The notes below the pieces were generated by a model that saw only the letters and a program-made list of their open reading frames with translations, did not search any database and was not told where the DNA came from. Positions 1 through 58,737 of a DNA stretch of 64,000 nt are shown here, piece after piece (position 1 is the first letter of the stretch; each line of letters opens with the position of its first letter). The DNA is from Escherichia coli (GTDB lineage Bacteria > Pseudomonadota > Gammaproteobacteria > Enterobacterales > Enterobacteriaceae). The DNA lies in assembly GCF_044647545.1 (NCBI RefSeq), contig NZ_CP172818.1, one strand, 5' to 3'. The translations under genes and the position numbers were made by a program.

Positions 1-2739
<2,739 letters not shown>

Positions 2740-2831
2740 ACAACGCCGAAGGTGTTTTGGCGGATTGAGAGAAGATTTTCAGCCTGATACAGATTAAATC
2801 AGAACGCAGAAGCGGTCTGATAAACAGAATT

Positions 2832-2951
2832 TGCCTGGCGGCCTTAGCGCGGTGGTCCCACCTGACCCCATGCCGAACTCAGAAGTGAAACGCCGTAGCG
2901 CCGATGGTAGTGTGGGGTCTCCCCATGCGAGAGTAGGGACCACCTTTTTGC
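2832..2951 (+). rRNA. rrfA: 5S ribosomal RNA with aberrant 3' end (canonical sequence only to ~2939)
   Basis: TGCCTGGCGGCC...CCCCATGCGAGAGTAGGGA matches E. coli 5S, ~92 bp after the 23S end; last ~12 nt replaced by CCACCTTTTTGCG instead of ACTGCCAGGCAT. Confidence 0.8.
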
Positions 2952-3010
2952 GTTGGTGCGGAATAAATGCCGGATGCGACGCTGGCGCGTTTGCTCCAGC
3001 CTACTCTTGC

Positions 3011-3538
3011 TTATCCGTCCTGCTTTTGCATCCACTCCACCACAAAATCAGCCAGCCCCTCAACATCATTAATATCCAGTAACGCGACATCAAGATTAAG
3101 CGGCACATCACTGGCTACAACAATAACATGTCTGTCTATCACTAATTCTTCTGGTCGATGTCCGGTTCCATCGCGAAACAGCACAATCTTTGCGATCTCT
3201 TCATGCTTAAACCCTTCGACCAGAATCAAATCCAGCTTTGAAGCATCCATCCGGCTTGCGAGAAAATGCAGATCCAGTTCTTCTTCGTCTGGCGTTTCTG
3301 TCATCAAAGCCCATCGTTGCTGGCTGGCAACGATGGTTTGCGCCGCGCCAGCCTTGCGCAGCTCATAGCTATCTTTGCCCGGTTTATCAACATCCATATC
3401 ATGGTGCGTATGCTTAATCAGCCCCGGACGGATCCCTCTGGCGCATAATGCCGGGATCAGTTTTTTCAGCAGCGTCGTTTTTCCGGTGCCACTCCACGCG
3501 GCAAAGGCGAGTAACGGTATCATTGTCTTTCCTGCCAT
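3011..3538 (-). CDS. mobB: Molybdopterin-guanine dinucleotide biosynthesis adapter protein MobB
   Basis: 175 aa ORF with P-loop [12 protein letters not shown]; overlaps mobA start as in the mobAB operon. Confidence 0.9.
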
Positions 3539-4104
3539 CGGGCAAGCTCCTCTGGCGTATTCACGTTAACAAATGCATCTTTATGATCGCTGAAATCAAC
3601 CGCATGACCGCCAGCCTGACGCATAAATGCCATTACCCGGCGTTCTCCTGCTTGCAAATATTCTTGTAATAAAGGCTCAATAGCGCGGTTTACCAGAGCA
3701 ATAGTCGGGTGATCGCGTTCACCGTCGTGGACCCACACGACAGGCGCATCTTTGCGCTGATGATTAAGCCGGGCGGCTAAATCCTGGGGAATATAAGGCG
3801 TATCGCACGGACAAAACAAAAACCACTCACCCGCTTCCTGCTGCATTACTGAAAGCATTCCTGCCAGAGGGCCTGGGTAATCCGCCAGTGAATCTTCAAT
3901 CACTTTCAGACCGCTTGCCTGATAGATTTCCTGATGACGATTAGCATTAACCACGACGTGAGAGAGCTGCGTCATAAGCGCGTCAGCGACATGTTGCCAT
4001 AATGGTTTGCCGTTTAATTCAAGCAATCCTTTATCTACGCCGCCCATTCGTCTGGCTTTACCGCCTGCCAGCACAACGCCTGTTATCGTCGTCATCAGAT
4101 TCAC
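3520..4104 (-). CDS. mobA: Molybdenum cofactor guanylyltransferase MobA
   Basis: 194 aa [25 protein letters not shown]..., nucleotidyltransferase motif. Confidence 0.93.
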
Positions 4105-11857: not shown

Positions 11858-12004
11858 GATTCGCCTGAACATGCCCTTTTTTCGTAAGTAAGCAACATAA
11901 GCTGTCACGTTTTGTGATGGCTATTAGAAATTCCTATGCAACAACTGAAAAAAAATTACAAAAAATGCTTTCTGAACTGAACAAAAAAGAGTAAAGTTAG
12001 TCGC

Positions 12005-12113
12005 GTAGGGTACAGAGGTAAGATGTTCTATCTTTCAGACCTTTTACTTCACGTAATCGGATTTGGCTGAATATTTTAGCCGCCCCAGTCAGTAATGACT
12101 GGGGCGTTTTTTA
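12005..12113 (+). ncRNA. spf: Spot 42 small regulatory RNA
   Basis: Matches GTAGGGTACAGAGGTAAGATGTTCTATCTTTCAGACC...CCCCAGTCAGTAATGACTGGGGCGTTTTTTA with intrinsic terminator; located between polA and engB. Confidence 0.9.
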
Positions 12114-13141: not shown

Positions 13142-13385
13142 ATAGAGCGAGGACGCTAACAGGAACAATGACTCAGGATGAGGGTCAGGAGCGCCAGGAG
13201 GCGAAGACAGAGGATTGTCAGGAAGACAAACGTCCGGAGACGTAATTAAACGGAAATGGAATCAACACGGATTGTTCCGGCTAATGGAAAAACAGGGTGT
13301 GTTGGCGGCCTGCAAGGATTGTAAGACCCGTTAAGGGTTATGAGTCAGGAAAAAAGGCGACAGAGTAATCTGTCGCCTTTTTTCT
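13142..13385 (+). ncRNA. csrC: CsrC small RNA (CsrA-sequestering)
   Basis: ATAGAGCGAGGACGCTAACAGGAACAATGACTCAGGATGAGGGTCAGGAGCGCCAGGAGG... with multiple GGA motifs and terminal hairpin GGCGACAGAGTAATCTGTCGCCTTTTTT; between engB and yihI. Confidence 0.85.
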
Positions 13386-13452
13386 TTGCTTGCTTTCTGT
13401 TAGATTCCGCCGCAAATCTATACTGAATAAAACGGCTAAAAGACGAACCATT

Positions 13453-18560: not shown

Positions 18561-18583
18561 AGTTTCCCGAACAACTTCAACTA

Positions 18584-20059: not shown

Positions 20060-20220
20060 CGCCGTAAAAAAGATAAAGCGAAAACTGTGCCAACTTTTAA
20101 ATTGCCCCTAAAAGGCGTTATCATGCTTAACATCGTGCAAAAGGGCTGCACCATGATGTGAATGTTGCACCAATATAGTGCTTCAATGGAAACATTAAGC
20201 ACCATATTGGTGCAATGGCC
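20060..20220 (-). promoter_or_regulatory. glnAp2 sigma-54 promoter with upstream NtrC binding sites
   Basis: Minus strand TTGGCACAGTTTTCGCTTTATC (GG/GC -24/-12 elements) at ~20076-20093; NtrC-type palindromes GCACCATATTGGTGCA and TGCACCA...TTGCACCA at ~20147-20217. Confidence 0.75.
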
Positions 20221-20365
20221 TTTGGATAACCCTTTTTATGCTCCGTGAAAGCGATCACAAAGGGACTCTGCAATACTTGTTTGCGGAGGATGTTTGTGAT
20301 CCTGTTTTGTAGTGCGATTAATCCGTGTACAATAACGCGCTATTTCTAATGCCTGAGGCAAAGTT

Positions 20366-22206: not shown

Positions 22207-22239
22207 AAAAAACCTGCCATCGCTGGCAGGTTTTTTTTT
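22207..22239 (+). terminator. Rho-independent terminator downstream of typA
   Basis: AAAAAACCTGCCATCGCTGGCAGG followed by TTTTTTTTT. Confidence 0.7.
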
Positions 22240-22405
22240 GCCTGTCGTGAGCGCACACCAATGCGAGTATCTCCCTTATAAGTCTGTGGTTACGTCAATA
22301 GAGAGCTTTGTCACAATTATCTGCAAAGTCATACGCCGTTAATTGCTTTCTTTTTTGGCGTAAGCGTAAGATGCTTCATCTGGTTTAAACCAAAAGGATT
22401 AAACA

Positions 22406-23115
22406 ATGGCGGAGAATCAATCCACCGTAGAAAATGCAAAAGAGAAACTGGATCGGTGGTTGAAAGATGGCATCACCACGCCGGGTGGAAAACTCCCTTC
22501 AGAAAGAGAGCTGGGAGAACTGCTGGGCATTAAACGTATGACGCTGCGCCAGGCGTTGTTGAACCTCGAGGCAGAATCCAAAATCTTCCGTAAGGATTGT
22601 AGGGGTGGTTCGTGACCCAGCCGCGATTTAATTACAGTCCGGAGCTGTCAGCGAGCTTTCAGCGGGCCGCAATTGAGCAAGGACGAGAGCCTTCCTGGGG
22701 GTTTACCGAGAAAAACCGTACCAGCGATATTCCCGAGACGCTCGCGCCACTGATCGCAGTGACACCATCAACTGAACTCTATCGCATCACCGGCTGGGGG
22801 GCGCTGGAAGGACATAAAGTTTTCTATCACGAAACATATATTAATCCTGAAGTTGCTCCGGGCTTTATTGAACAACTTGAAAACCACTCATTTTCTGCAG
22901 TCTGGGAAAAGTGCTACCAAAAAGAGACGGTAGTAAAAAAATTGATTTTCAAACCCGTCAGAATGCCGGGCGATATCAGCAAGTATCTTGGCGGTTCTGC
23001 GGGTATGCCAGCGATCTTAATTGAAAAGCATCGCGCCGACCAGCAAGGCAATATTGTCCAAATAGATATTGAATATTGGCGATTTGAGGCCGTAGACCTC
23101 ATCATTAATCTGTAG
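22406..23115 (+). pseudogene. yihL: GntR-family regulator YihL, split by an apparent 1 bp deletion near 22601-22610
   Basis: ORFs 22406..22615 (69 aa, winged HTH) and 22612..23115 (167 aa) lie in different frames; combined length equals the 236 aa expected for intact YihL. Confidence 0.7.
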
Positions 23116-23122
23116 GTGTTTT

Positions 23123-24103
23123 ATGGTGACAATAAATAACGCAAGAAAGATTCTACAACGTGTCGACACTCTTCCTCTTTATTTACATGCTTATGCCTTT
23201 CATTTAAATATGCGGCTGGAAAGAGTGTTGCCTGCTGATTTACTTGATATCGCAAGTGAAAATAATCTACGTGGCGTCAAAATCCATGTTCTCGATGGCG
23301 AGCGTTTTTCTCTTGGTAATATGGACGATAAAGAACTCTCTGCCTTTGGGGATAAAGCCCGCCGTCTGAACCTTGATATTCATATTGAAACCAGCGCCTC
23401 AGATAAGGCATCTATTGACGAAGCCGTCGCCATCGCGTTGAAAACTGGGGCATCGTCCGTACGTTTTTATCCACGTTATGAAGGTAATTTGCGCGACGTA
23501 TTATCGATTATCGCTAACGACATTGCCTATGTACGGGAAACGTATCAGGACAGCGGCCTGACTTTTACGATCGAGCAGCATGAAGATTTAAAAAGTCATG
23601 AGCTGGTGTCGCTGGTCAAAGAAAGTGAGATGGAATCTCTTTCCTTACTGTTTGATTTTGCGAACATGATCAATGCAAATGAGCATCCCATCGACGCTTT
23701 AAAAACGATGGCACCGCATATTACCCAGGTCCATATCAAAGATGCCTTGATCGTTAAAGAACCGGGTGGCCTGGGTCATAAAGCCTGTATTTCAGGTCAG
23801 GGTGATATGCCGTTCAAAGCGTTATTAACGCACCTTATCTGCCTGGGTGATGATGAGCCGCAGGTGACGGCATATGGCCTGGAAGAAGAGGTTGATTACT
23901 ATGCGCCGGCGTTCCGCTTTGAAGACGAAGATGATAATCCGTGGATCCCTTATCGCCAGATGAGTGAAACACCATTGCCAGAAAATCATTTACTGGATGC
24001 GCGGTTACGTAAAGAAAAAGAAGATGCAATTAATCAGATAAATCATGTGCGTAACGTACTACAACAAATCAAACAAGAGGCAAACCATCTTCTGAACCAC
24101 TAA
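23123..24103 (+). CDS. yihM: Sugar phosphate isomerase/epimerase (xylose isomerase-like TIM barrel) YihM
   Basis: 326 aa ORF; synteny yihL-yihM-yihN. Confidence 0.85.
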   Translation: MVTINNARKILQRVDTLPLYLHAYAFHLNMRLERVLPADLLDIASENNLRGVKIHVLDGERFSLGNMDDKELSAFGDKARRLNLDIHIETSASDKASIDEAVAIALKTGASSVRFYPRYEGNLRDVLSIIANDIAYVRETYQDSGLTFTIEQHEDLKSHELVSLVKESEMESLSLLFDFANMINANEHPIDALKTMAPHITQVHIKDALIVKEPGGLGHKACISGQGDMPFKALLTHLICLGDDEPQVTAYGLEEEVDYYAPAFRFEDEDDNPWIPYRQMSETPLPENHLLDARLRKEKEDAINQINHVRNVLQQIKQEANHLLNH

Positions 24104-24204
24104 TAAGTTTTAACTCATACGCAGTTAATAAAACCATTCCATATGAATGGTCGGTATCTTATTGCCTTTAAAACAGTGATTTTAAAAATCGCTTAGGGGA
24201 TGTT

Positions 24205-25470
24205 ATGCTCACGAAAAAGAAATGGGCGTTATTTAGTCTATTAACACTGTGTGGCGGTACAATTTATAAATTACCGTCGCTGAAAGATGCGTTTTATATC
24301 CCGATGCAGGAATATTTCCATTTGACCAATGGTCAAATTGGTAATGCTATGTCGGTAAACTCATTTGTCACCACAGTGGGCTTTTTTCTGTCTATTTATT
24401 TTGCCGATAAACTACCGCGCAGATACACCATGTCATTCTCACTCATTGCGACAGGATTACTGGGTGTTTATTTGACGACAATGCCGGGGTATTGGGGCAT
24501 CCTCTTTGTCTGGGCGCTATTTGGCGTTACTTGCGACATGATGAACTGGCCGGTCTTGCTCAAGTCGGTAAGTCGATTGGGCAATAGCGAACAACAAGGT
24601 CGGTTGTTTGGCTTCTTCGAAACAGGGCGTGGCATTGTCGATACCGTGGTGGCATTTTCTGCGTTGGCAGTATTTACCTGGTTTGGCAGTGGCTTATTAG
24701 GTTTTAAAGCAGGCATCTGGTTCTATTCCCTTATTGTGATTGCCGTAGGCATTATTATTTTCTTTGTCCTGAATGACAAAGAAGAGGCACCGTCCGTTGA
24801 GGTGAAAAAAGAAGACGGAGCATCGAAAAACACCAGTATGACCTCGGTGCTGAAAGACAAAACTATCTGGCTTATCGCTTTTAACGTCTTCTTCGTTTAC
24901 GCGGTTTACTGTGGCCTGACATTCTTCATTCCATTCCTGAAAAACATCTATCTATTGCCCGTTGCGCTGGTGGGGGCTTACGGCATCATTAACCAATACT
25001 GTCTGAAAATGATTGGTGGACCGATTGGTGGCATGATTTCAGATAAGATCCTGAAATCGCCAAGTAAATATCTATGCTACACCTTTATCATTAGTACCGC
25101 TGCGCTCGTACTGTTGATTATGCTGCCGCACGAAAGTATGCCGGTCTATTTAGGGATGGCATGTACGCTGGGCTTTGGCGCGATAGTCTTTACACAGCGA
25201 GCCGTATTTTTTGCACCTATCGGCGAAGCAAAAATTGCTGAAAATAAAACAGGTGCGGCGATGGCGTTGGGTAGCTTTATTGGTTACGCTCCGGCGATGT
25301 TCTGCTTCAGTCTGTATGGCTACATTCTGGATTTAAATCCGGGGATTATTGGCTACAAAATCGTGTTTGGCATTATGGCCTGCTTCGCATTCAGTGGTGC
25401 GGTGGTTTCCGTAATGCTGGTTAAGCGTATTAGCCAACGTAAGAAAGAGATGCTGGCGGCTGAAGCTTAA
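24205..25470 (+). CDS. yihN: MFS transporter YihN
   Basis: 421 aa ORF with ~12 hydrophobic segments. Confidence 0.85.
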   Translation: MLTKKKWALFSLLTLCGGTIYKLPSLKDAFYIPMQEYFHLTNGQIGNAMSVNSFVTTVGFFLSIYFADKLPRRYTMSFSLIATGLLGVYLTTMPGYWGILFVWALFGVTCDMMNWPVLLKSVSRLGNSEQQGRLFGFFETGRGIVDTVVAFSALAVFTWFGSGLLGFKAGIWFYSLIVIAVGIIIFFVLNDKEEAPSVEVKKEDGASKNTSMTSVLKDKTIWLIAFNVFFVYAVYCGLTFFIPFLKNIYLLPVALVGAYGIINQYCLKMIGGPIGGMISDKILKSPSKYLCYTFIISTAALVLLIMLPHESMPVYLGMACTLGFGAIVFTQRAVFFAPIGEAKIAENKTGAAMALGSFIGYAPAMFCFSLYGYILDLNPGIIGYKIVFGIMACFAFSGAVVSVMLVKRISQRKKEMLAAEA

Positions 25471-25475
25471 TTAAT

Positions 25476-25553
<78 letters not shown>

Positions 25554-31236: not shown

Positions 31237-31554
31237 AAATAATCTCCATAGAGTATAAAGCTAATATTTCATGCCATCCTGTTGTTACAGGTTTCATTAA
31301 TTAAAGATTGTGTGCTATAAATAAAACCCCATAAGTGATATATAAAAACTTTTTCAGCCCGGCGGATTGCCGCCATTTTTAACCAAAAATGCCAGTTACA
31401 ATAATAACTAACAATAAACGGAGCAGAATCCAGCCGGGAATTCCCATCCCTTTTATCAACATAGAACCGGAGGCAATCAGCAACAAAAAGACCATCACAC
31501 GGAACACTTTGACTGAAAGCGTTTATGCACATATCTCCAACAAGCGAACCGAGA

Positions 31555-31945
31555 ATCAGGAAAACAAAAAACACCAGTTAAAAAAAGAAACATCAAAATC
31601 CCCCCCCCCCGCCCCCCCCGCCCCCCTTTTTGGGGAAAAAAAGGGTCCGAGGCCCCGAATCCCCCGGGCCCAATTCCAGCATACCTACACCCCCGCCCCG
31701 CCCCCCGCCCCGCTCGCCGCTACTCGCCGATACGCCGCGACCATAACGTCAAAACGACAGACAAGAAATAAACATAAAAAAAAAAAAAAAGAAAAGGATC
31801 CCCCTACCCATTAAAAACGTACATACAAACACACAAACAAACAACAAAAAAAAAAATAACGCCCCCCCAACACAAAAAAAAAAACCCCAACAAAAAGAAA
31901 AAAAAAAAAAAAAAAAAAAAAAACACCCCCCAAAAAAAAAAAAAA
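31555..31945. other. Anomalous low-complexity tract (A+C only; homopolymer runs of C and A up to ~26 nt)
   Basis: Directly visible: CCCCCCCCCCCGCCCCCCCCGCCCCCC, AAAAAAAAAAAAAAAAAAAAAAAAAA and similar; G nearly absent for ~250 bp; no plausible coding frame. Confidence 0.9.
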
Positions 31946-39915: not shown

Positions 39916-40901
39916 GCCAGCTTCCAGGGTTGTCACGGGAAACAAGAGAGAGTATCGCTATGTATCACCTTCGGGTTCCACAAACAGAAGAAGAATTAGA
40001 GCGTTACTATCAGTTTCGCTGGGAAATGTTGCGTAAGCCCCTGCATCAACCGAAAGGTTCGGAACGCGACGCGTGGGATGCGATGGCGCATCACCAGATG
40101 GTCGTCGACGAGCAGGGTAATCTGGTGGCGGTAGGCCGACTGTATATTAATGCCGACAATGAAGCGTCCATTCGCTTTATGGCCGTTCATCCCGACGTGC
40201 AGGACAAAGGGTTAGGAACGCTGATGGCGATGACCCTCGAATCTGTGGCGCGTCAGGAAGGTGTTAAGCGCGTGACCTGTAGCGCCCGCGAAGACGCGGT
40301 GGAGTTTTTCGCCAAGCTGGGGTTTGTTAATCAGGGAGAAATCACCACGCCAACCACCACGCCGATTCGCCATTTTTTGATGATTAAACCCGTTGCCACT
40401 CTGGATGATATTTTGCATCGCGGCGACTGGTGCGCGCAGCTGCAACAGGCGTGGTATGAACACATCCCGCTGAGTGAAAAAATGGGCGTGCGCATTCAGC
40501 AATATACCGGGCAAAAATTTATCACCACCATGCCGGAAACAGGCAATCAGAATCCGCATCACACGCTGTTTGCCGGGAGTTTATTCTCGCTGGCAACGCT
40601 CACCGGTTGGGGGCTTATCTGGCTGATGCTGCGCGAACGCCACCTCGGCGGAACGATTATTCTGGCGGATGCGCATATCCGCTATAGCAAGCCGATTAGC
40701 GGCAAACCTCATGCGGTAGCCGACCTTGGTGCCTTAAGCGGCGATCTCGACCGTCTGGCGCGTGGACGAAAAGCACGGGTGCAGATGCAAGTAGAAATCT
40801 TTGGCGACGAGACGCCGGGTGCAGTGTTTGAAGGCACGTATATCGTTCTGCCCGCGAAGCCATTTGGCCCGTATGAAGAGGGCGGGAACGAAGAAGAGTA
40901 G
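39912..40901 (+). CDS. yiiD: GNAT acetyltransferase / thioesterase fusion protein YiiD (FabY)
   Basis: 329 aa ORF with GNAT region ([15 protein letters not shown]) followed by hotdog-like C-terminal domain. Confidence 0.85.
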
Positions 40902-40904
40902 CGT

Positions 40905-41729
40905 TGGCAGGTGCATTGCACTCCTTGCCCCTGTCATGCGGTGATACAACGCTTCACCTTCATCGCAAAGTGGGTCGTATTCAGCGGTAATGATATGTAC
41001 AGGTGGCAAGCCATTGAAATCATCGCGCCAAAGAGGGCTGGCTTCAGGATGCCTGCGTTCAATGCCTGGCAGGTACATCTCAAAGCCGCTCAGTAAAGTG
41101 TCGCGTGTGATGATGTAATCGTGACGATTGCGTATGTAGCTTTCGAAATGCGCAGTCGCATCAAGCATGGGATAAATTAAGATGACCGAGTTGTGCCGGT
41201 TGCCACTCGCCAGCACGCTTTAATCGCAAAGCAGTTACCAGCGCCAGATGTCCGCCCGCACTGTCACCGGCAAGAGTTATCCGTTGTTTATCAACGCCGA
41301 GTCGTTCGGCGTGTTGCCGACTGAATTCTGCACCTCGTTGCGCATCATCATGGGCGGCGGGGAAAGTATGTCCGGTGCCAGCCGATACTGGACGGCAATA
41401 ACCCGACATTGCCCGTAATAGGCTAACTGGCGCAGCTGGTTGTCGTGAGTTGCGAACCCGCCGCTAACAAAACAGCCACCGTAGTAATAAATTATCGTCG
41501 GGAGTAATGTCGGGGCATTCAGCGGTGACACTATTCGTAAGGTCATCGCTTCAAGTTCGATAGTCTGAATATCTACCCGCGTTTCTGTCTCACCCGCAAG
41601 GACAGCGCTGGCGATATAGCCCTCCCTGCGCTGCGCAATACTTTGTTGACGCGATGAGGGGCGACCCGCAGCGATAAACTCTTCGACTAACTCTGCAATT
41701 CCTTTTTCAGTGCCATAGTAGAACTCATT
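40905..41729 (-). pseudogene. Decayed alpha/beta-hydrolase (hormone-sensitive-lipase family esterase, Aes-like) gene remnant
   Basis: Minus-strand fragments in three or more frames: ..IIYYYGGCFVSGGFATHD.. (oxyanion-hole region), ..ITLAGDSAGGHLALVTALRLK.. (GDSAG nucleophile elbow), ..HIITAEYDPLCDEGEALYHRMTGA.. (acid-residue region); no single frame covers the gene and the 3' end runs into yiiD. Confidence 0.6.
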
Positions 41730-41945
41730 TTGCTGTATGAATGTACAGTTTTATACACCCGTTTTTACTGGATGGATACAGGGAAATTCACGGGCGTGAA
41801 AAATCTGGAAAGCGCCTCGCAAATGTAAAGACAAACCCGGCAGAGATGTGGTTTTGCTGGAGCACTATCAGTAAGCTAGTGGTTTCAAGGGTACGTCAAT
41901 GACGTACAGAAGGGGTTTATTTATCTAAGCCAATGGCGTATAATT

Positions 41946-42256
41946 ATGCTCTTCATCGAAACGGAAATTTTTACTGAAGATGTTCAAAAACTGCTGACCG
42001 ACGATGAATTCAGTCGTTTTCAGTTTTTCCTGGCCTTGAATCCTGACTATGGTGAGGTAATACCTGAAACTGGTGGGTTAAGAAAGGTTCGATGGGTGTC
42101 AGGAGGAAGGGGAAACGTGCTGGTGTCAGGGTTATTTACTTTCATCAGGTTAAACATTATGAGATCAGATTACTGCTTATTTATCGTAAGGGTATTAAAG
42201 ATAATATCTCTCCCCAGGAAAAAGCAATGCTCCGGTTGTTAAATACGAGGTGGTAA
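41946..42256 (+). pseudogene. RelE/ParE-superfamily (HigB-like) toxin with an internal frameshift
   Basis: Frame 1 gives MLFIETEIFTEDVQKLLTDDEFSRFQFFLALNPDYGEVIPETGGLRKVRWVSGGRG..; the +1 frame continues ..GKRAGVRVIYF..EIRLLLIYRKGIKDNISPQEKAMLRLLNTRW and stops at TAA directly abutting the antitoxin ATG. Confidence 0.6.
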
Positions 42257-42547
42257 ATGGATAAGGCACTTTTTGAGCGGTTGACTCACAGCATGGCCCA
42301 GATGAATGAAATTATTGAAGGAACGCGACAGCCTTCGCGGACTTTTGAAGTTGATGCTATGAAAATCAAAGAAATACGCCGCGCTTCAGGGTTGTCACAA
42401 TCTAAATTTGCCGATCTTATTTCTGTAAGCGTAGACACGTTGCGTAACTGGGAGCAGGGGCGACGTTCGCCGACCGGGCCTGCAAAGGCTTTGCTGCGAG
42501 CGATTGCCAATGATCCGCAACATGTGCTGCAAGCACTTAACCGTTAG
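42257..42547 (+). CDS. HTH (XRE-family) HigA-like antitoxin
   Basis: 96 aa ORF with HTH region IRRASGLSQSKFADLISVSVDTLRNWEQGRRSP; translationally coupled (TAAATG) to the upstream toxin frame. Confidence 0.7.
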   Translation: MDKALFERLTHSMAQMNEIIEGTRQPSRTFEVDAMKIKEIRRASGLSQSKFADLISVSVDTLRNWEQGRRSPTGPAKALLRAIANDPQHVLQALNR

Positions 42548-43150
42548 AGGCATGGTTATGCCATACAGAAAGCACCAGCATTCAGAACTCCTGTGAAAGC
42601 GGCGTAGTGCCACCTGCTCAGGAGTTTTGCTATGACCCGTAATCAGTGCTGACCGTTGCCACCCTATGATGCGATTAAAAAAACTCATCGTCGCGCCGAT
42701 GATTGACGTCAATGCTATCGGATGATACCGGGGGTGTTCCAGAAAGATCCAACTTTCCCGAACTGTTACCAACAAAATTATAACGATGAGCAAGTTAAGA
42801 CCGGTTGGTAGCAGTACTGACCGGTCTGTGATGGATGATTAATTTCACCTTAAATCCGGGTGCTGTTAGGATGCTGACATTTTTCGGCTACACCATTCAG
42901 ATTATGCAAATAAAGATCCAATCAAAAAATAAACATCCCTGTATATAATATATTTATAGCACCCATATCTCATCCTGGGCGATAACCCAACCATTTTTGA
43001 TTAACAAATGAAACAACTGCAACGTTCTTATTATTTCTGGAAAACGTCTCGCAAAAACAAAACAGCATGCAAAAATCCGCTTTTTTTAAATGATTTTTCG
43101 GCGTAATTTTCGCACATACATTAATGAGTAATATATGTAAGGTATTGGTA

Positions 43151-43369
43151 ATGGCGATGAATACGGTTTTTCTTCATTTATCAGAAGAGGCAATTAAACG
43201 GCTGAACAAGCTTAGGGGCTGGCGTAAGGTTTCACGATCTGCAATTTTACGCGAAGCGGTTGAGCAATATCTGGAGCGGCAGCAATTTCCGGTGCGTAAA
43301 GCAAAGGGTGGCAGGCAAAGGGGGGAGACAGTAGTTGTTGATGATCAGTGTAAGGAGCATAAGGAATGA
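43151..43369 (+). CDS. yiiE: Ribbon-helix-helix (CopG-like) small regulator YiiE
   Basis: 72 aa from MAMNTVFLHLSEEAIKRLNKLRGWRKVSRSAILREAVEQYLERQ inside ORF 43124..43369. Confidence 0.75.
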   Translation: MAMNTVFLHLSEEAIKRLNKLRGWRKVSRSAILREAVEQYLERQQFPVRKAKGGRQRGETVVVDDQCKEHKE

Positions 43370-43578
43370 CAAAAAATTTATTATTCTTGAATATAAAAAC
43401 CAGATGCCCTTATTCTGGTATTAATACAAGGCTGTTTTACTTGAACTTATAATAACTGCAACTGTTACATCATATCTGGAAAACGCCTCGCGAAATACGA
43501 GAGTTTGGAATAGCAGGTGTCGTCATACCCTATGAACTGTAATCCGGGCGACCAGCGCCACCCGGAAAACGTCAGAGA

Positions 43579-46051: not shown

Positions 46052-49000
46052 TTACACCTTTTCCACATTCACAAGGAAGGACTTAAACTCCGGCGTCTGC
46101 GTGTTCGCATCACCCACGAATGGCGTTAACGTATTGGCAATAAAGCCTTTTTTCGCAACGCCTTCATAGCCCCAGTGAATCGGAATACCGATGGTATCGA
46201 TATCTTTGCCGTTCGCTTTCAGCGTGCGAATACGTTTGGTCACCACCGCTTTGGCTTTGATATAGCCACGGTTGGAGGAGACTTTCACAGTATCGCCCTG
46301 GGCAATGCCAAGTTTATTCGCCAGCGACTCCCCGATTTCCACAAACTGCTCTGGTTGCAAAATCGCATTCAACAGCGCGTGTTTGGTCCAGTAGTGGAAG
46401 TGCTCGGTCAGACGATAGGTGGTTCCGACATACGGGAACTTATCGGCTTTACCCAATGCTTCGGCGTCGTCTTTAAAGATACGCGCAGCCGGGTTCGAGA
46501 TAACGTTTGGATGCAGCGGGTTAGTTCCCAGCGGCGTTTCAAACGGCTCGTAGTGTTCCGGGAACGGACCTTCCGCCATCTTATCGAGGGCAAACAGACG
46601 TCCCATGCCTTCCTGCTGCATGATAAACGGCCCTACGCCGCTGCCCGGAGGCGCTGCGCTGTAGTCCGGAATATCCCAGCCGGTCCACTTAGTGCCGTCC
46701 CATTTCAGCAACTGACGCTTCGGATCCCATGGGTTACCCTGCGGATCTGCGGAGGCGCGGTTATACAGAATGCGGCGGTTAAGCGGCCATGCCCATGCCC
46801 AGCCCAGCGTGTTACCGAGGCCAGACGGATCGGCGTTATCACGACGCGCCATCTGGTTACCTTCTGGCGTCCAGCTACCGGCGAAAATCCAGCAGCCACA
46901 GGAGGTCGTACCGTCATCGCGCAGTTGGGCGAACGAGCTAAGTTGTTGGCCTTTCTTGACGATAACCGCACCGGTTGCCGGATCGGTAATATCGGCCAGC
47001 GCCTTACCGTTGCTCTCCATCGCCACTTCTTCCGACTTCGGCTCATGCGGAATGGCGTAGTTCCAGGTCATATTCAGCACCTGGTCCGGGTTTGCGCCAC
47101 CCTGTTCGGCATACATCTTGCGCAAGCGCAGGAAGATACCGGAGAGGATCTCGCCATCAGTCAGCGCAATCCCTGGGGCGTCCGCACCTTTCCAGTGCCA
47201 CTGTAACCAGCGACCGGAGTTAACGATTGAACCGTTCTCTTCTGCGAAGCAAGTCGATGGCAGACGGAACACTTCGGTCTGGATCTTCGACGAGTCAACT
47301 TCGTTCAGCTCACCGTGGTTCTGCCAGAAGTTAGAGGTTTCAGTGTTCAGCGGGTCGATGGTGACGAGGAACTTCAGTTTCGACAGACAGCCGATCACTT
47401 TGTTTTTGTTCGGGAATGAGGCAACAGGGTTAAAGCCCTGGCAGATATAGCCATTGACCTTGCCCTCTTTCATCATCTCGAAGTATTGCAGGACGTCGTA
47501 GCCTTTATCCCACTTCGGCAACCAGTCAAAGCCCCAGTTATTTTCCGCCGTCGCTTTATCACCAAAGAAGGCCTTCATCATGGAGACGAAGAATTTCGGG
47601 TAATTGCCCCAGTAGTTAACCTGGCCTTCCAGCAGTGGTTTCGGCGTGTTGGCGGTAAGGTAAGTTTGCAGATCGGTCTGCTTCTCGCTTGGCAACGTCA
47701 TGTAACCTGGCAGACTCTGCGACAGCAGCCCCAGGTCGGTCAGCCCCTGAATATTGGAGTGACCGCGCAGGGCGTTAACGCCGCCGCCAGCCATCCCCAT
47801 ATTGCCGAGCAGCAGCTGGATCATCGCCATCGTACGAATGTTTTGCGCACCAATGGAGTGTTGCGTCCAGCCGAGGGCGTAGAGGAACGACGCTGTTTTA
47901 TCGTGAGCACTGGTTTCGGCGATGTATTCGCAGACTTTCAGGAACGCGTCTTTTGGCGTACCGCAGATGTTTTCAACCACATCTGGCGTATAACGGGAAA
48001 CGTGCTGTTTCAGCAAGTTCCACACGCAACGTGGATGTTGCAGCGTGGTATCGCGTTTGGCGAAGCCGTTTTCGTCCAGTTCGTAAGTCCAGGAGGATTT
48101 ATCGTACTTGCGTTTTTCCGCGTCGTAGCCGGTGAACAGGCCATCTTCAAAGCCGTAATCCTCACGCACGATCAGGCTGGCGTTGGTATAGGCTTCGGTG
48201 TATTCGCGGTTGAATTTTTCATTGTTCAGCAGGTACAGCAATACGCCTGACAGGAAAGCAATGTCAGTCCCGGAACGAATAGGGGCATAGTAGTCAGCCA
48301 CCGCCGCCGTACGTGTAAAGCGAGGATCGATCACAATCAGCTTCGCGCCGTTGTGAATTTTGGCTTCCATCGCCCAGCGGAACCCGACCGGGTGAGCTTC
48401 AGCGGCGTTACCGCCCATCACCACGACGAGGTTGGCATTCTTGATGTCGACCCAGTGGTTGGTCATCGCACCGCGACCAAATGTTGGAGCAAGACTTGCT
48501 ACCGTTGGTCCGTGTCAGACACGCGCCTGGTTGTCGACCGCGAGCATACCCAGCGCGCGGGAGAATTTTTGCGTTAAATAGCCGGTTTCGTTACTCGACG
48601 CGGAAGCACACAGCATCCCGGTGGAGAGCCAGCGGTTAACAGTCACGCCTTCGGCGTTTTGCGCAATGTAGTTCGCATCGCGGTCTTCTTTCATCAGTTT
48701 GGCGATGCGATCAAACGCCTCTTCCCAACTGATTTGTTGCCATTTATCAGAACCTGGCGCACGGTATTCCGGAAACTTCAGGCGGCTTTCGGAGTGGATG
48801 AAATCCACCAGGCCAGCGCCTTTCGGACAAAGTGCTCCGCGGTTGACCGGGTGATCCGGGTCACCTTCGATATGGAAGATAGATGCTTTGGCGTTTTTTG
48901 CTCCGTCACCGAGGCTGTACATCAACAGCCCACAGCCTACGGAACAATAGGTGCAGGTATTACGGGTTTCGCGGGTGCGCAGCAGTTTATACTGCCGGGT

Positions 49001-56103: not shown

Positions 56104-56539
56104 TATTGGATTCCATGAAAAAATATAATAGTTAATTGTAACGGCGGGGCGGTTTTGTGATGAGCGCGGATATGTCGTGAAGTCGTGACAATATAAGGCA
56201 GAGTGAAGGATAAATTTTGCGGTGTAAGGCACATATTGATGGGTAAAATAAAGCAGTGAATAAAAAATCATTATTTAATGATGTTGTGAATGTTTAACTG
56301 CCGCACATGTTTTGCAGCAAGGTTATTTATATTTGTGGCTTATGAGTCAGCGTGAATTATATCTAATATTTTTAACGATATTTGGTTAAAAACGGCACTA
56401 TTGTTTATTCCTCAGTTCCAGAAATCAGCGGATTTACTCATATTATACGATACTATCCATCGCCTCTAAGTTGATTAAAAATTCGAAATCACACCTTATA
56501 TTTCTCTATAACTATTCCTTTTGAAACATCTCTTTTTTT

Positions 56540-57125
56540 GGGGAAGAAAAAAAAAAAAAACATTTGTTTGGGGAGGAGAGGGAAAAAAAAAAATTAAGGG
56601 AACAACGAGATTGTGGAAGAAGCCGGAGAGAAAAAAGCGGCAAAAAAAGAGAGAGAGGGGGAAAAAAAGCAGACAAAAAAAGGGAGACGGAAAAAGAGCG
56701 CGAGAAGGGGAAAAAGAGGAGAAGCGGGGAGCGAGAAAAAAAAACCCACCTCTCTTCTTCTCTGGGAAAAAAAAGCGGGAAAATAAAGGGAAAAGAAGGG
56801 GGGAGAAGAGTGGAGAAGACCACAAAAGAGAGGAGTGTTGTTGGAAAGAGAAGAAGTCGCGGGGTCCCCCGCAGGGGGGAGGGGGAGAAAAAGGGGTGTT
56901 TTCGCAAGAAAAAGAAGAAGGAAAGAAGGGGGGAGTGCCGGAGGAAGTGTGAGTAGAAAAACGAATGAGGGGGGAGCTATATGAAAGAAGGGGCGGGGGC
57001 AGGGGGTCATTCGGAAAAAAAAAAGAATGTTGAAAAAAAAGAAAGAAAAGGAAAAATTAAAGAAGAAAAGAGGAGGGGAGGGAGAAAGAAAATTCGGGAT
57101 GCGGGGCAGGAGGGTGCGCGGTGCT
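56540..57125. other. Anomalous ~590 bp polypurine (A+G) low-complexity tract
   Basis: Directly visible: GGGGAAGAAAAAAAAAAAAAA..GGGGAGGAGAGGGAAAAAAAAAAA..; plus strand almost devoid of pyrimidine runs; overlapping ORFs in several frames encode only low-complexity K/E/R/G or P/S/F/L peptides. Confidence 0.9.
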
Positions 57126-58319: not shown

Positions 58320-58737
58320 TTGGACGTCCGTGCCTGTTGCCGGATGTACGATCTGTAGGCCGGATAAGGCACTCGTGCCGCATCCGGCAATCAATGCCTG
58401 ATGCGACGCTGTCGCGTCTTATCAGCCTACAACTATTGCCGACCCTAGCCGGATATGGCGCTCGTGCCGCATCCGGCAATCAATGCCTGATGCGACGCTG
58501 TCGCGTCTTATCAGGCCTACAACTATTGCCGACCTGTAGGCCGGATAAGGCACTTGTGCCGCATCCGGCAACAATGCTGATGCGACGCGTCGCGTCTTAT
58601 CAGGCCTACAACTATTGCCGACCCGTAGCCGATATGCGCTCGTGCCGCATCCCAATCAATGCCGATGCGACGCTGCGCGCTATCAGGCCACAACAGCCGA
58701 CCCGAGGCCGGAAAGGCACGGCCGCATCCGGCAGTGT
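58320..58737. repeat. Tandem REP/BIME array (~4.5 units of ~85 bp) in the rhaD-rhaA intergenic region
   Basis: Repeated GCCGGATAAGGC.CTCGTGCCGCATCCGGCAATCAATGCCTGATGCGACGCTGTCGCGTCTTATCAGGCCTACAACTATTGCCGACC; distal copies progressively lose bases. Confidence 0.8.

Follow-up and report, generated by a model that had tools for sequence, protein, structure and literature searches.

A truncated 5S rRNA gene between rrnA and mobB in an Escherichia coli genome is probably an error of the sequence record

We analysed a 64,000-nt stretch of Escherichia coli DNA, called the window here, which the gene order 23S-5S-mobB-mobA and the annotation of relatives identify as the rrnA–mobB region. The locus contains the following features.

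1 to 2739, plus strand: 23S rRNA of the rrnA operon, its 5' end cut by the window edge (Rfam RF02541, 2682.9 bits)
2832 to 2939, plus strand: 5S rRNA (rrfA) nt 1–108, identical to the copies of ST648, FDAARGOS_497 and GCA_028597905.1
2844, plus strand: T at 5S nt 13 ('GCCTTAGCG'); the triplet is CTT in comparison loci L001–L003 and L005–L008 and AGT in K-12
2851 to 2859, plus strand: GGTGGTCCC, the exact reverse complement of a new GGGACCACC at 2936–2944
2940 to 2944: junction filler CCACC, in place of 5S nt 109–120, the AU-rich RNase E spacer and the hairpin GGCCCAGTC-GGAA-GACTGGGC
2945 to 2949, plus strand: TTTTT, the rrnA terminator's T-run, left without a hairpin (from alignment)
2950 to 3010: rest of the rrfA–mobB spacer, the same as in relatives (100% identity to loci L001, L002 and L005 3' of the junction)
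3011 to 3538, minus strand: mobB, intact (from the ORF list; 528/528 nt, no stops; annotated mobB in relatives)
3520 to 4104, minus strand: mobA, intact (from the ORF list and the relatives' annotation)

The 23S rRNA differs from that of strain TUM12368 by just 2 SNPs. The 5S gene begins TGCCTGGCGGC... at 2832 and matches the intact copies exactly up to ...GAGAGTAGGGA, with position 2939 corresponding to 5S nt 108; past that point the record reads CCACCTTTTTGCG and the intact copies read ACTGCCAGGCAT. An earlier note, made from the sequence, had described a 5S that is canonical as far as this position and then diverges, and the alignments bear it out. As nt 1–108 are the same as in relatives, helices II–V, loops B–E and the 5' strand of helix I are intact. 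The same note had pointed to a single substitution near the 5' end. The T at 2844 is indeed present, but it is common to all of the non-K-12 loci examined (7/7) and occupies a column that is unpaired loop A in the Rfam consensus; judged from these alignments, the G13-to-T change is a normal natural allele and no lesion. Positions ~2969–3005, in the remaining rrfA–mobB spacer, hold what we take, reading off the REP consensus, to be a REP-like palindromic sequence.

Alignments to the closest genomes showed that 48 nt of the intact relatives correspond to the 5 nt CCACC (2940–2944) in the record, a net change of -43 bp. Where relatives read GGGA, then ACTGCCAGGCATCAAATTAAGCAGAAGGCCCAGTCGGAAGACTGGGCT, then TTTTTGCG, the record reads GGGA, then CCACC, then TTTTTGCG; to the left and to the right, identity to the comparison genomes is 100%. 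After 5S nt 108 the record reads CCACC TTTTT GCGTTGG, the whole junction being GGGACCACCTTTTTGCG; the intact form at this place is ...GGGAACTGCCAGGCATCAAATTAAGCAGAAGGCCCAGTCGGAAGACTGGGC(C/T)TTTTTGCG. Gone from the record are 5S nt 109–120, which make up the 3' strand of helix I, the AU-rich spacer AUCAAAUUAAGCAGAA belonging to the RNase E 3' cut of the 9S precursor, and the complete rrnA terminator hairpin, whose T-run survives. With this loss the record has no CAUCAAAUUAAG, the putative single-stranded AU-rich RNase E site directly 3' of the mature 5S end that the step from 9S to p5S requires. 9S RNA requires two RNase E cuts flanking 5S (PMC6202311).

As had been noticed before, the 5S runs into the T-tract of an rrn terminator end (TTTTT retained at 2945–2949) and its spacer to mobB is very short: the end of mobB lies 62 nt past the T-run, whereas the K-12 spacer measures 269 nt and that of close relatives 104 nt. 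The proposal that the 5S 3' end and most of the terminator had been deleted stands at the level of sequence but not as a clean deletion, the event being a delins (48 nt to 5 nt) with 3–5 unexplained bases in which the first T of the run has become C. The natural allele of SCU-115 ends ...GACTGGGCC-TTTTT (GGGCC+T5). If the progenitor had an allele of this type, the filler may owe its final CC to that ancestor, which would leave only CCA unexplained.

The RF00001 covariance model matched 2834–2948, nominally full-length, at 77.4 bits (threshold 38). The intact ST648 5S reached 93.2 bits with helix I paired, the record's copy scoring 15.8 bits lower; cmscan flagged most helix-I pairs of the record as non-canonical and a single one in the intact copy. 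When CCACCUUUUUGC was set by hand against the 5' strand, at most 5 of the 10 pairs could be made, 3 of them G-U, with no more than 2 contiguous. The earlier statement that the 3' strand of helix I is missing was thereby upheld, and on this modelling the truncated 5S product could not form helix I. At 77 bits, the broken 5S would still be labelled as a normal rrf by Rfam-based annotation and its defect would not be flagged. A consensus terminator scan of window positions 2700–3200 returned 0 terminator-like sites; the same scan of the equivalent stretch of a relative returned 1, with a hairpin of 8–9 bp, and the terminator region there has a folding energy of -30.8 kcal/mol (z = -4.3). The record keeps the U-tract part of an intrinsic terminator (2945–2949) and lacks the G+C-rich, short-loop hairpin part.

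The filler forms part of an inverted repeat. GGTGGTCCC sits 76 nt upstream of GGGACCACC, and the 9-nt inverted match takes in the whole filler. A local match this long or longer would be given by 27 of the 1024 possible 5-mer fillers (p about 0.03), and if the CC is ancestral there are only 3 nt to explain. In both the MFE and the centroid structure that RNAfold gives for the truncated transcript, the two 9-mers pair immediately ahead of U5, and the folding energy of this transcript overall is no better than that of shuffles (z = -1.0). The new 9-mer stem before U5 might, as modelled, give weak termination.

We searched for the junction in 5,426 complete E. coli genomes (megablast, with the locus and with a 90-nt probe). 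There was no contiguous match in this set, and the best matches to the junction probe were all in two pieces with a 43-nt gap. With a probe starting at GGGACCACC the alignment never reached left of CC, and none of the 5,426 genomes had CCACC before the T-run. An exact-pattern scan for the junction gave 0 hits in GTDB representative genomes and 0 in JGI metagenome contigs. Two comparators, GCA_028597905.1 and GCA_029964605.1, were found by exact-protein look-up with the window's PolA; over ~19 kb they show a handful of mismatches and 1-nt gaps relative to the window (~99.99% identical), and the full 5S 3' end and terminator hairpin are present in both. TUM12368 has zero differences from the window between 2945 and 9163. 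By these comparisons the 5S lesion is a singleton on an otherwise identical background.

The whole window was compared with GCA_028597905.1 (loci L006, L010 and L013) and TUM12368, and at least seven further record-specific lesions came to light. The damaged stretches are listed here.

18562 to 18575: glnA terminator lost; the hairpin CCCGGCG-TTGTT-GCGCCGGG between glnA and glnL is taken out by a delins of ~35 nt whose edges are scrambled
~22601 (yihL, 22406 to 23115): split yihL; a 1-nt deletion versus TUM12368 turns the GntR-family regulator gene into two ORFs
31308 to 31600: drop-out run; single bases missing, mostly G (31308–31449 almost only missing G or T), grading into junk
31603 to 31945: C/A-rich homopolymer junk, 343 nt in place of 591 nt of a TauE-family membrane-protein gene
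40895 to 41460: fabY/hydrolase lesions; a 160-nt deletion with GTAG microhomology at its flanks, plus five small indels or scrambles
41709 to 43507: small substitution and indel clusters (e.g. 41909–41923, 42741–42753, 43504–43507); both references agree against the window
56374 to 56526: G-only drop-outs, grading into A/G-rich junk
56527 to 57115: A/G-rich junk with an AT skew as high as +1.0, 589 nt in place of 1435 nt of a Porin_8 carbohydrate porin gene
58426 to 58721: REP/BIME array between rhaD and rhaA with ~24 single-base deletions versus a near-identical genome; Rfam naRNA4 matches

The delins at the glnA terminator is absent from all four aligned relatives (4/4). In relatives the TauE-family gene sits between yihQ and yihR, and the Porin_8 gene replaced by junk is the one between frvA and rhaM. 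The 160-nt deletion takes out the fabY/hydrolase spacer hairpin together with the hydrolase 3' end, and the alpha/beta-hydrolase gene is broken into three ORFs; the adjoining 8,956 consecutive nt are 100% identical to the relative. One of the clusters within 41709–43507 frameshifts a 103-aa hypothetical gene. The deletions in the REP array affect G first and then almost exclusively T. Both junk stretches aligned to the true sequence above shuffled controls in a gap-tolerant global alignment (z = 6.0 and 3.5), and because they align collinearly better than shuffles we regard the junk as a degraded collinear copy, not as foreign DNA; in a plain LCS test of the junk as the reference minus bases, shuffled controls scored equally high. 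Drop-outs and junk of this sort are, going by their sequence, no biological mutation pattern.

The yihL segment has no near-identical comparator, and its 1-nt deletion fits an error or a real pseudogene alike. From 22237 to 25553, yihL-yihM-yihN reaches at most ~99.1% identity to any of the 5,426 complete genomes, and the YihN loci from the exact look-up are just ~97% identical. In the closest backbone relative, the place of yihL–yihN is taken by a different 5.7-kb gene set (ATP-grasp, sulfatase, radical SAM). The SNPs of the 22–25 kb segment fall at third codon positions (checked against the yihM frame), and for this reason we read 22237–25553 as a natural recombination mosaic.

Elsewhere, 45 of 48 conserved CDSs are without an indel. 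The single in-frame TGA of fdoG is the selenocysteine codon, with a SECIS element (RF01989) within the gene at 48462–48520 on the minus strand. The underlying genome thus appears to be real and well determined, with localised damage. All lesions fall either in structured DNA between genes or in accessory genes that vary among strains, and the contrast between this damage and the untouched conserved genes excludes neutral decay on this timescale. A generally noisy assembly was considered and rejected, as core differences from relatives are SNPs at third codon positions with almost no indels. The sRNAs Spot 42 (11995–12113), CsrC (13142–13395) and ES222 (20177–20284) are intact.

We consider it likely, on sequence comparison, that the truncation of the 5S gene is an error which arose in the sequence record (through assembly, consensus or copying) and which the organism itself does not have. 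The genome behind the record would belong to a genuine E. coli from a phylogroup-F-like lineage related to ST648, and its rrfA and rrnA terminator would be normal. In the record, 48 nt where the rrn repeat ends would have been lost and a few spurious bases put in, and one lossy process would also have hit the other intergenic and accessory-gene stretches of the window. We infer that the 5S lesion shares its cause with the other lesions, and the glnA-terminator loss and the fabY/hydrolase lesions do resemble it in their scrambled edges. The junction is located where the multi-copy rrn repeat passes into unique sequence. Borders between repeat and unique sequence are a classic place for faulty assembly joins, and we infer that a faulty join could have arisen at this one. 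The earlier note had concluded that the 5S copy would be non-functional if real. Helix I indeed cannot form, but a record error is more likely than a non-functional gene because the junction is unique, the near-identical relatives are intact and non-biological lesions lie nearby. Systematic loss of the most stable hairpins was tried as an account of the damaged sites and rejected: a local folding-energy scan puts the rrnA hairpin in eighth place and the glnA one outside the top 40, and the terminators of Spot 42 and CsrC are stronger yet intact, so that hairpin stability does not explain the choice of sites. For base-specific drop-outs combined with two-letter junk, we know of no documented platform signature that can be cited.

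Some observations count against an error. The flanks of the 5S junction are perfectly clean, with no single-base drop-outs for thousands of bases on each side, and the graded edges of the junk stretches are not seen there. The rrnA–mobB spacer is naturally length-polymorphic through deletions (269 nt in K-12 vs 104 nt in the ST648 type), so that another real deletion at this place is not far-fetched. The K-12 spacer (L004 337–607) contains T1, a repeat of the 5S 3' end (AACTGCCAGGCATCAAATTAAGCAGAAGGCC) and T2; the ST648-type spacer (L001 811–914) has just one, hybrid terminator, such as a recombination between the two repeats would leave. One could go as far as to see in the record's rrfA 3' flank a normal natural allele of the lineage, which would call for nothing beyond this variability. 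Yet every relative, including those with identical flanks, has the full 5S and the hairpin, and CCACC precedes the T-run in none of the 5,426 genomes; the identical-flank alignments rule such an allele out, and we give this reading practically no chance. The reference alignment, which the note had named as a possible refutation, does not show this sequence as the normal rrfA 3' flank. A clean deletion from an unsampled terminator allele ending ...CCACC was also rejected, there being none in the 5,426 genomes and the SCU-115 allele explaining the last CC at most.

A real, very recent, strain-specific deletion, produced in one complex event by slippage or template switching near the terminator hairpin, is the more serious alternative, and we regard it as unlikely. 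The clean flanks and the deletion history of the spacer speak for it, and so does the filler: GGGACCACC is the reverse complement of GGTGGTCCC, and completing a 9-nt inverted repeat is the trace that a replication template switch at a quasipalindrome would be expected to leave (27/1024), although with a GGGCC+T5 ancestor the filler shrinks to 3 nt and this statistic weakens. Also on its side are the two RNase E cuts flanking 5S that 9S needs (PMC6202311) and the survival of E. coli after 5S gene loss, at a fitness cost, as Ammons et al. 1999 are cited in PMC4330394; according to that work as cited in PMC4330394 and PMC7283268, the loss of 5S genes is disproportionately costly. The loss of one 5S copy of eight should be survivable, and one defective gene among the eight should be tolerated. 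Against a real deletion stand the absence of the junction from near-identical relatives (~19 kb) and from all 5,426 complete genomes, the presence in the same record of lesions that cannot be biological, and the cost that should attach to losing the terminator of a very strong, antiterminated operon facing mobBA. A real deletion would make rrfA a pseudogene; its transcript, without helix I or a 3' RNase E site, would miss normal 9S maturation and probably be degraded or unstable. The rrnA operon would be without a canonical terminator, and its transcription would stop inefficiently or continue antisense through mobB and mobA. Seven further 5S genes would make up for the loss, and the case would be a minor curiosity of a single strain, bearing on tolerance of rrn read-through and on 5S dosage. 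There is only a slim chance that a real deletion left a helix-I-less 5S pseudogene without its terminator in which the filler stem and the U-tract act as a substitute terminator around the 5S core; were that true, it would be a natural case of terminator repair by template switch and of tolerated rrn read-through antisense to mobBA. Slimmer still is the chance that the filler was selected as a makeshift terminator, with a predicted 9-bp G+C-rich stem (2851–2859 with 2936–2944). RNAfold does put this stem directly before UUUUU in both MFE and centroid structures, but the overall folding energy is no better than that of shuffled sequences (z = -1.0), native helices II and III, folding during transcription, would compete for the 5' arm, and canonical intrinsic terminators are short-looped, whereas here a structured 'loop' of 76 nt encloses the 5S core and the scan finds no terminator; all the evidence against a real deletion applies as well.

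If the truncated 5S is a record error, as we think probable, it offers nothing mechanistically new, and its value would be that of a quality warning. The corrupted stretches of the window would give rise to pseudogenes, 'novel' low-complexity elements and terminator losses that are all false. Whatever else is reported from this window, above all from intergenic or accessory regions, calls for comparison with a close relative such as GCA_028597905.1.

Among known systems, missed base calls at inverted repeats are documented in nanopore data (PMC7229812). The record resembles these errors in losing bases at hairpin-forming DNA (two terminators and the REP array) and in that its lesions are record-specific, with conserved sequence elsewhere clean; it differs in that the repeats of PMC7229812 are much longer, whereas the hairpins here are only ~20 nt and stronger ones are untouched. 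Compared with a quasipalindrome template switch, the record is alike in that its new bases extend complementarity to nearby sequence, giving a perfect 9-nt inverted repeat, but it has no pre-existing imperfect palindrome here, 43 nt are also deleted, and the statistical support is modest and varies with the ancestral allele assumed. Mutations associated with quasipalindromes and attributed to template switching are known from E. coli mutagenesis. The natural polymorphism of the spacer is similar in that it, too, involves a loss of sequence between the 3' end of 5S and the last T-run, GCG(T/A)TTGG; however, the variants found in nature retain the full 120-nt 5S and one or more hairpins beside a T-run, and the window keeps neither. 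The nearest counterpart is the E. coli rrfA with its rrnA terminator in ST648, FDAARGOS_497 and TUM12368, which shares with the record the locus, the gene order, 5S nt 1–108, the nt-13 T allele, the T-run and the downstream sequence, and from which the record differs in carrying CCACC instead of 5S nt 109–120, AUCAAAUUAAGCAGAA and the GGCCCAGTC/GACTGGGC hairpin.
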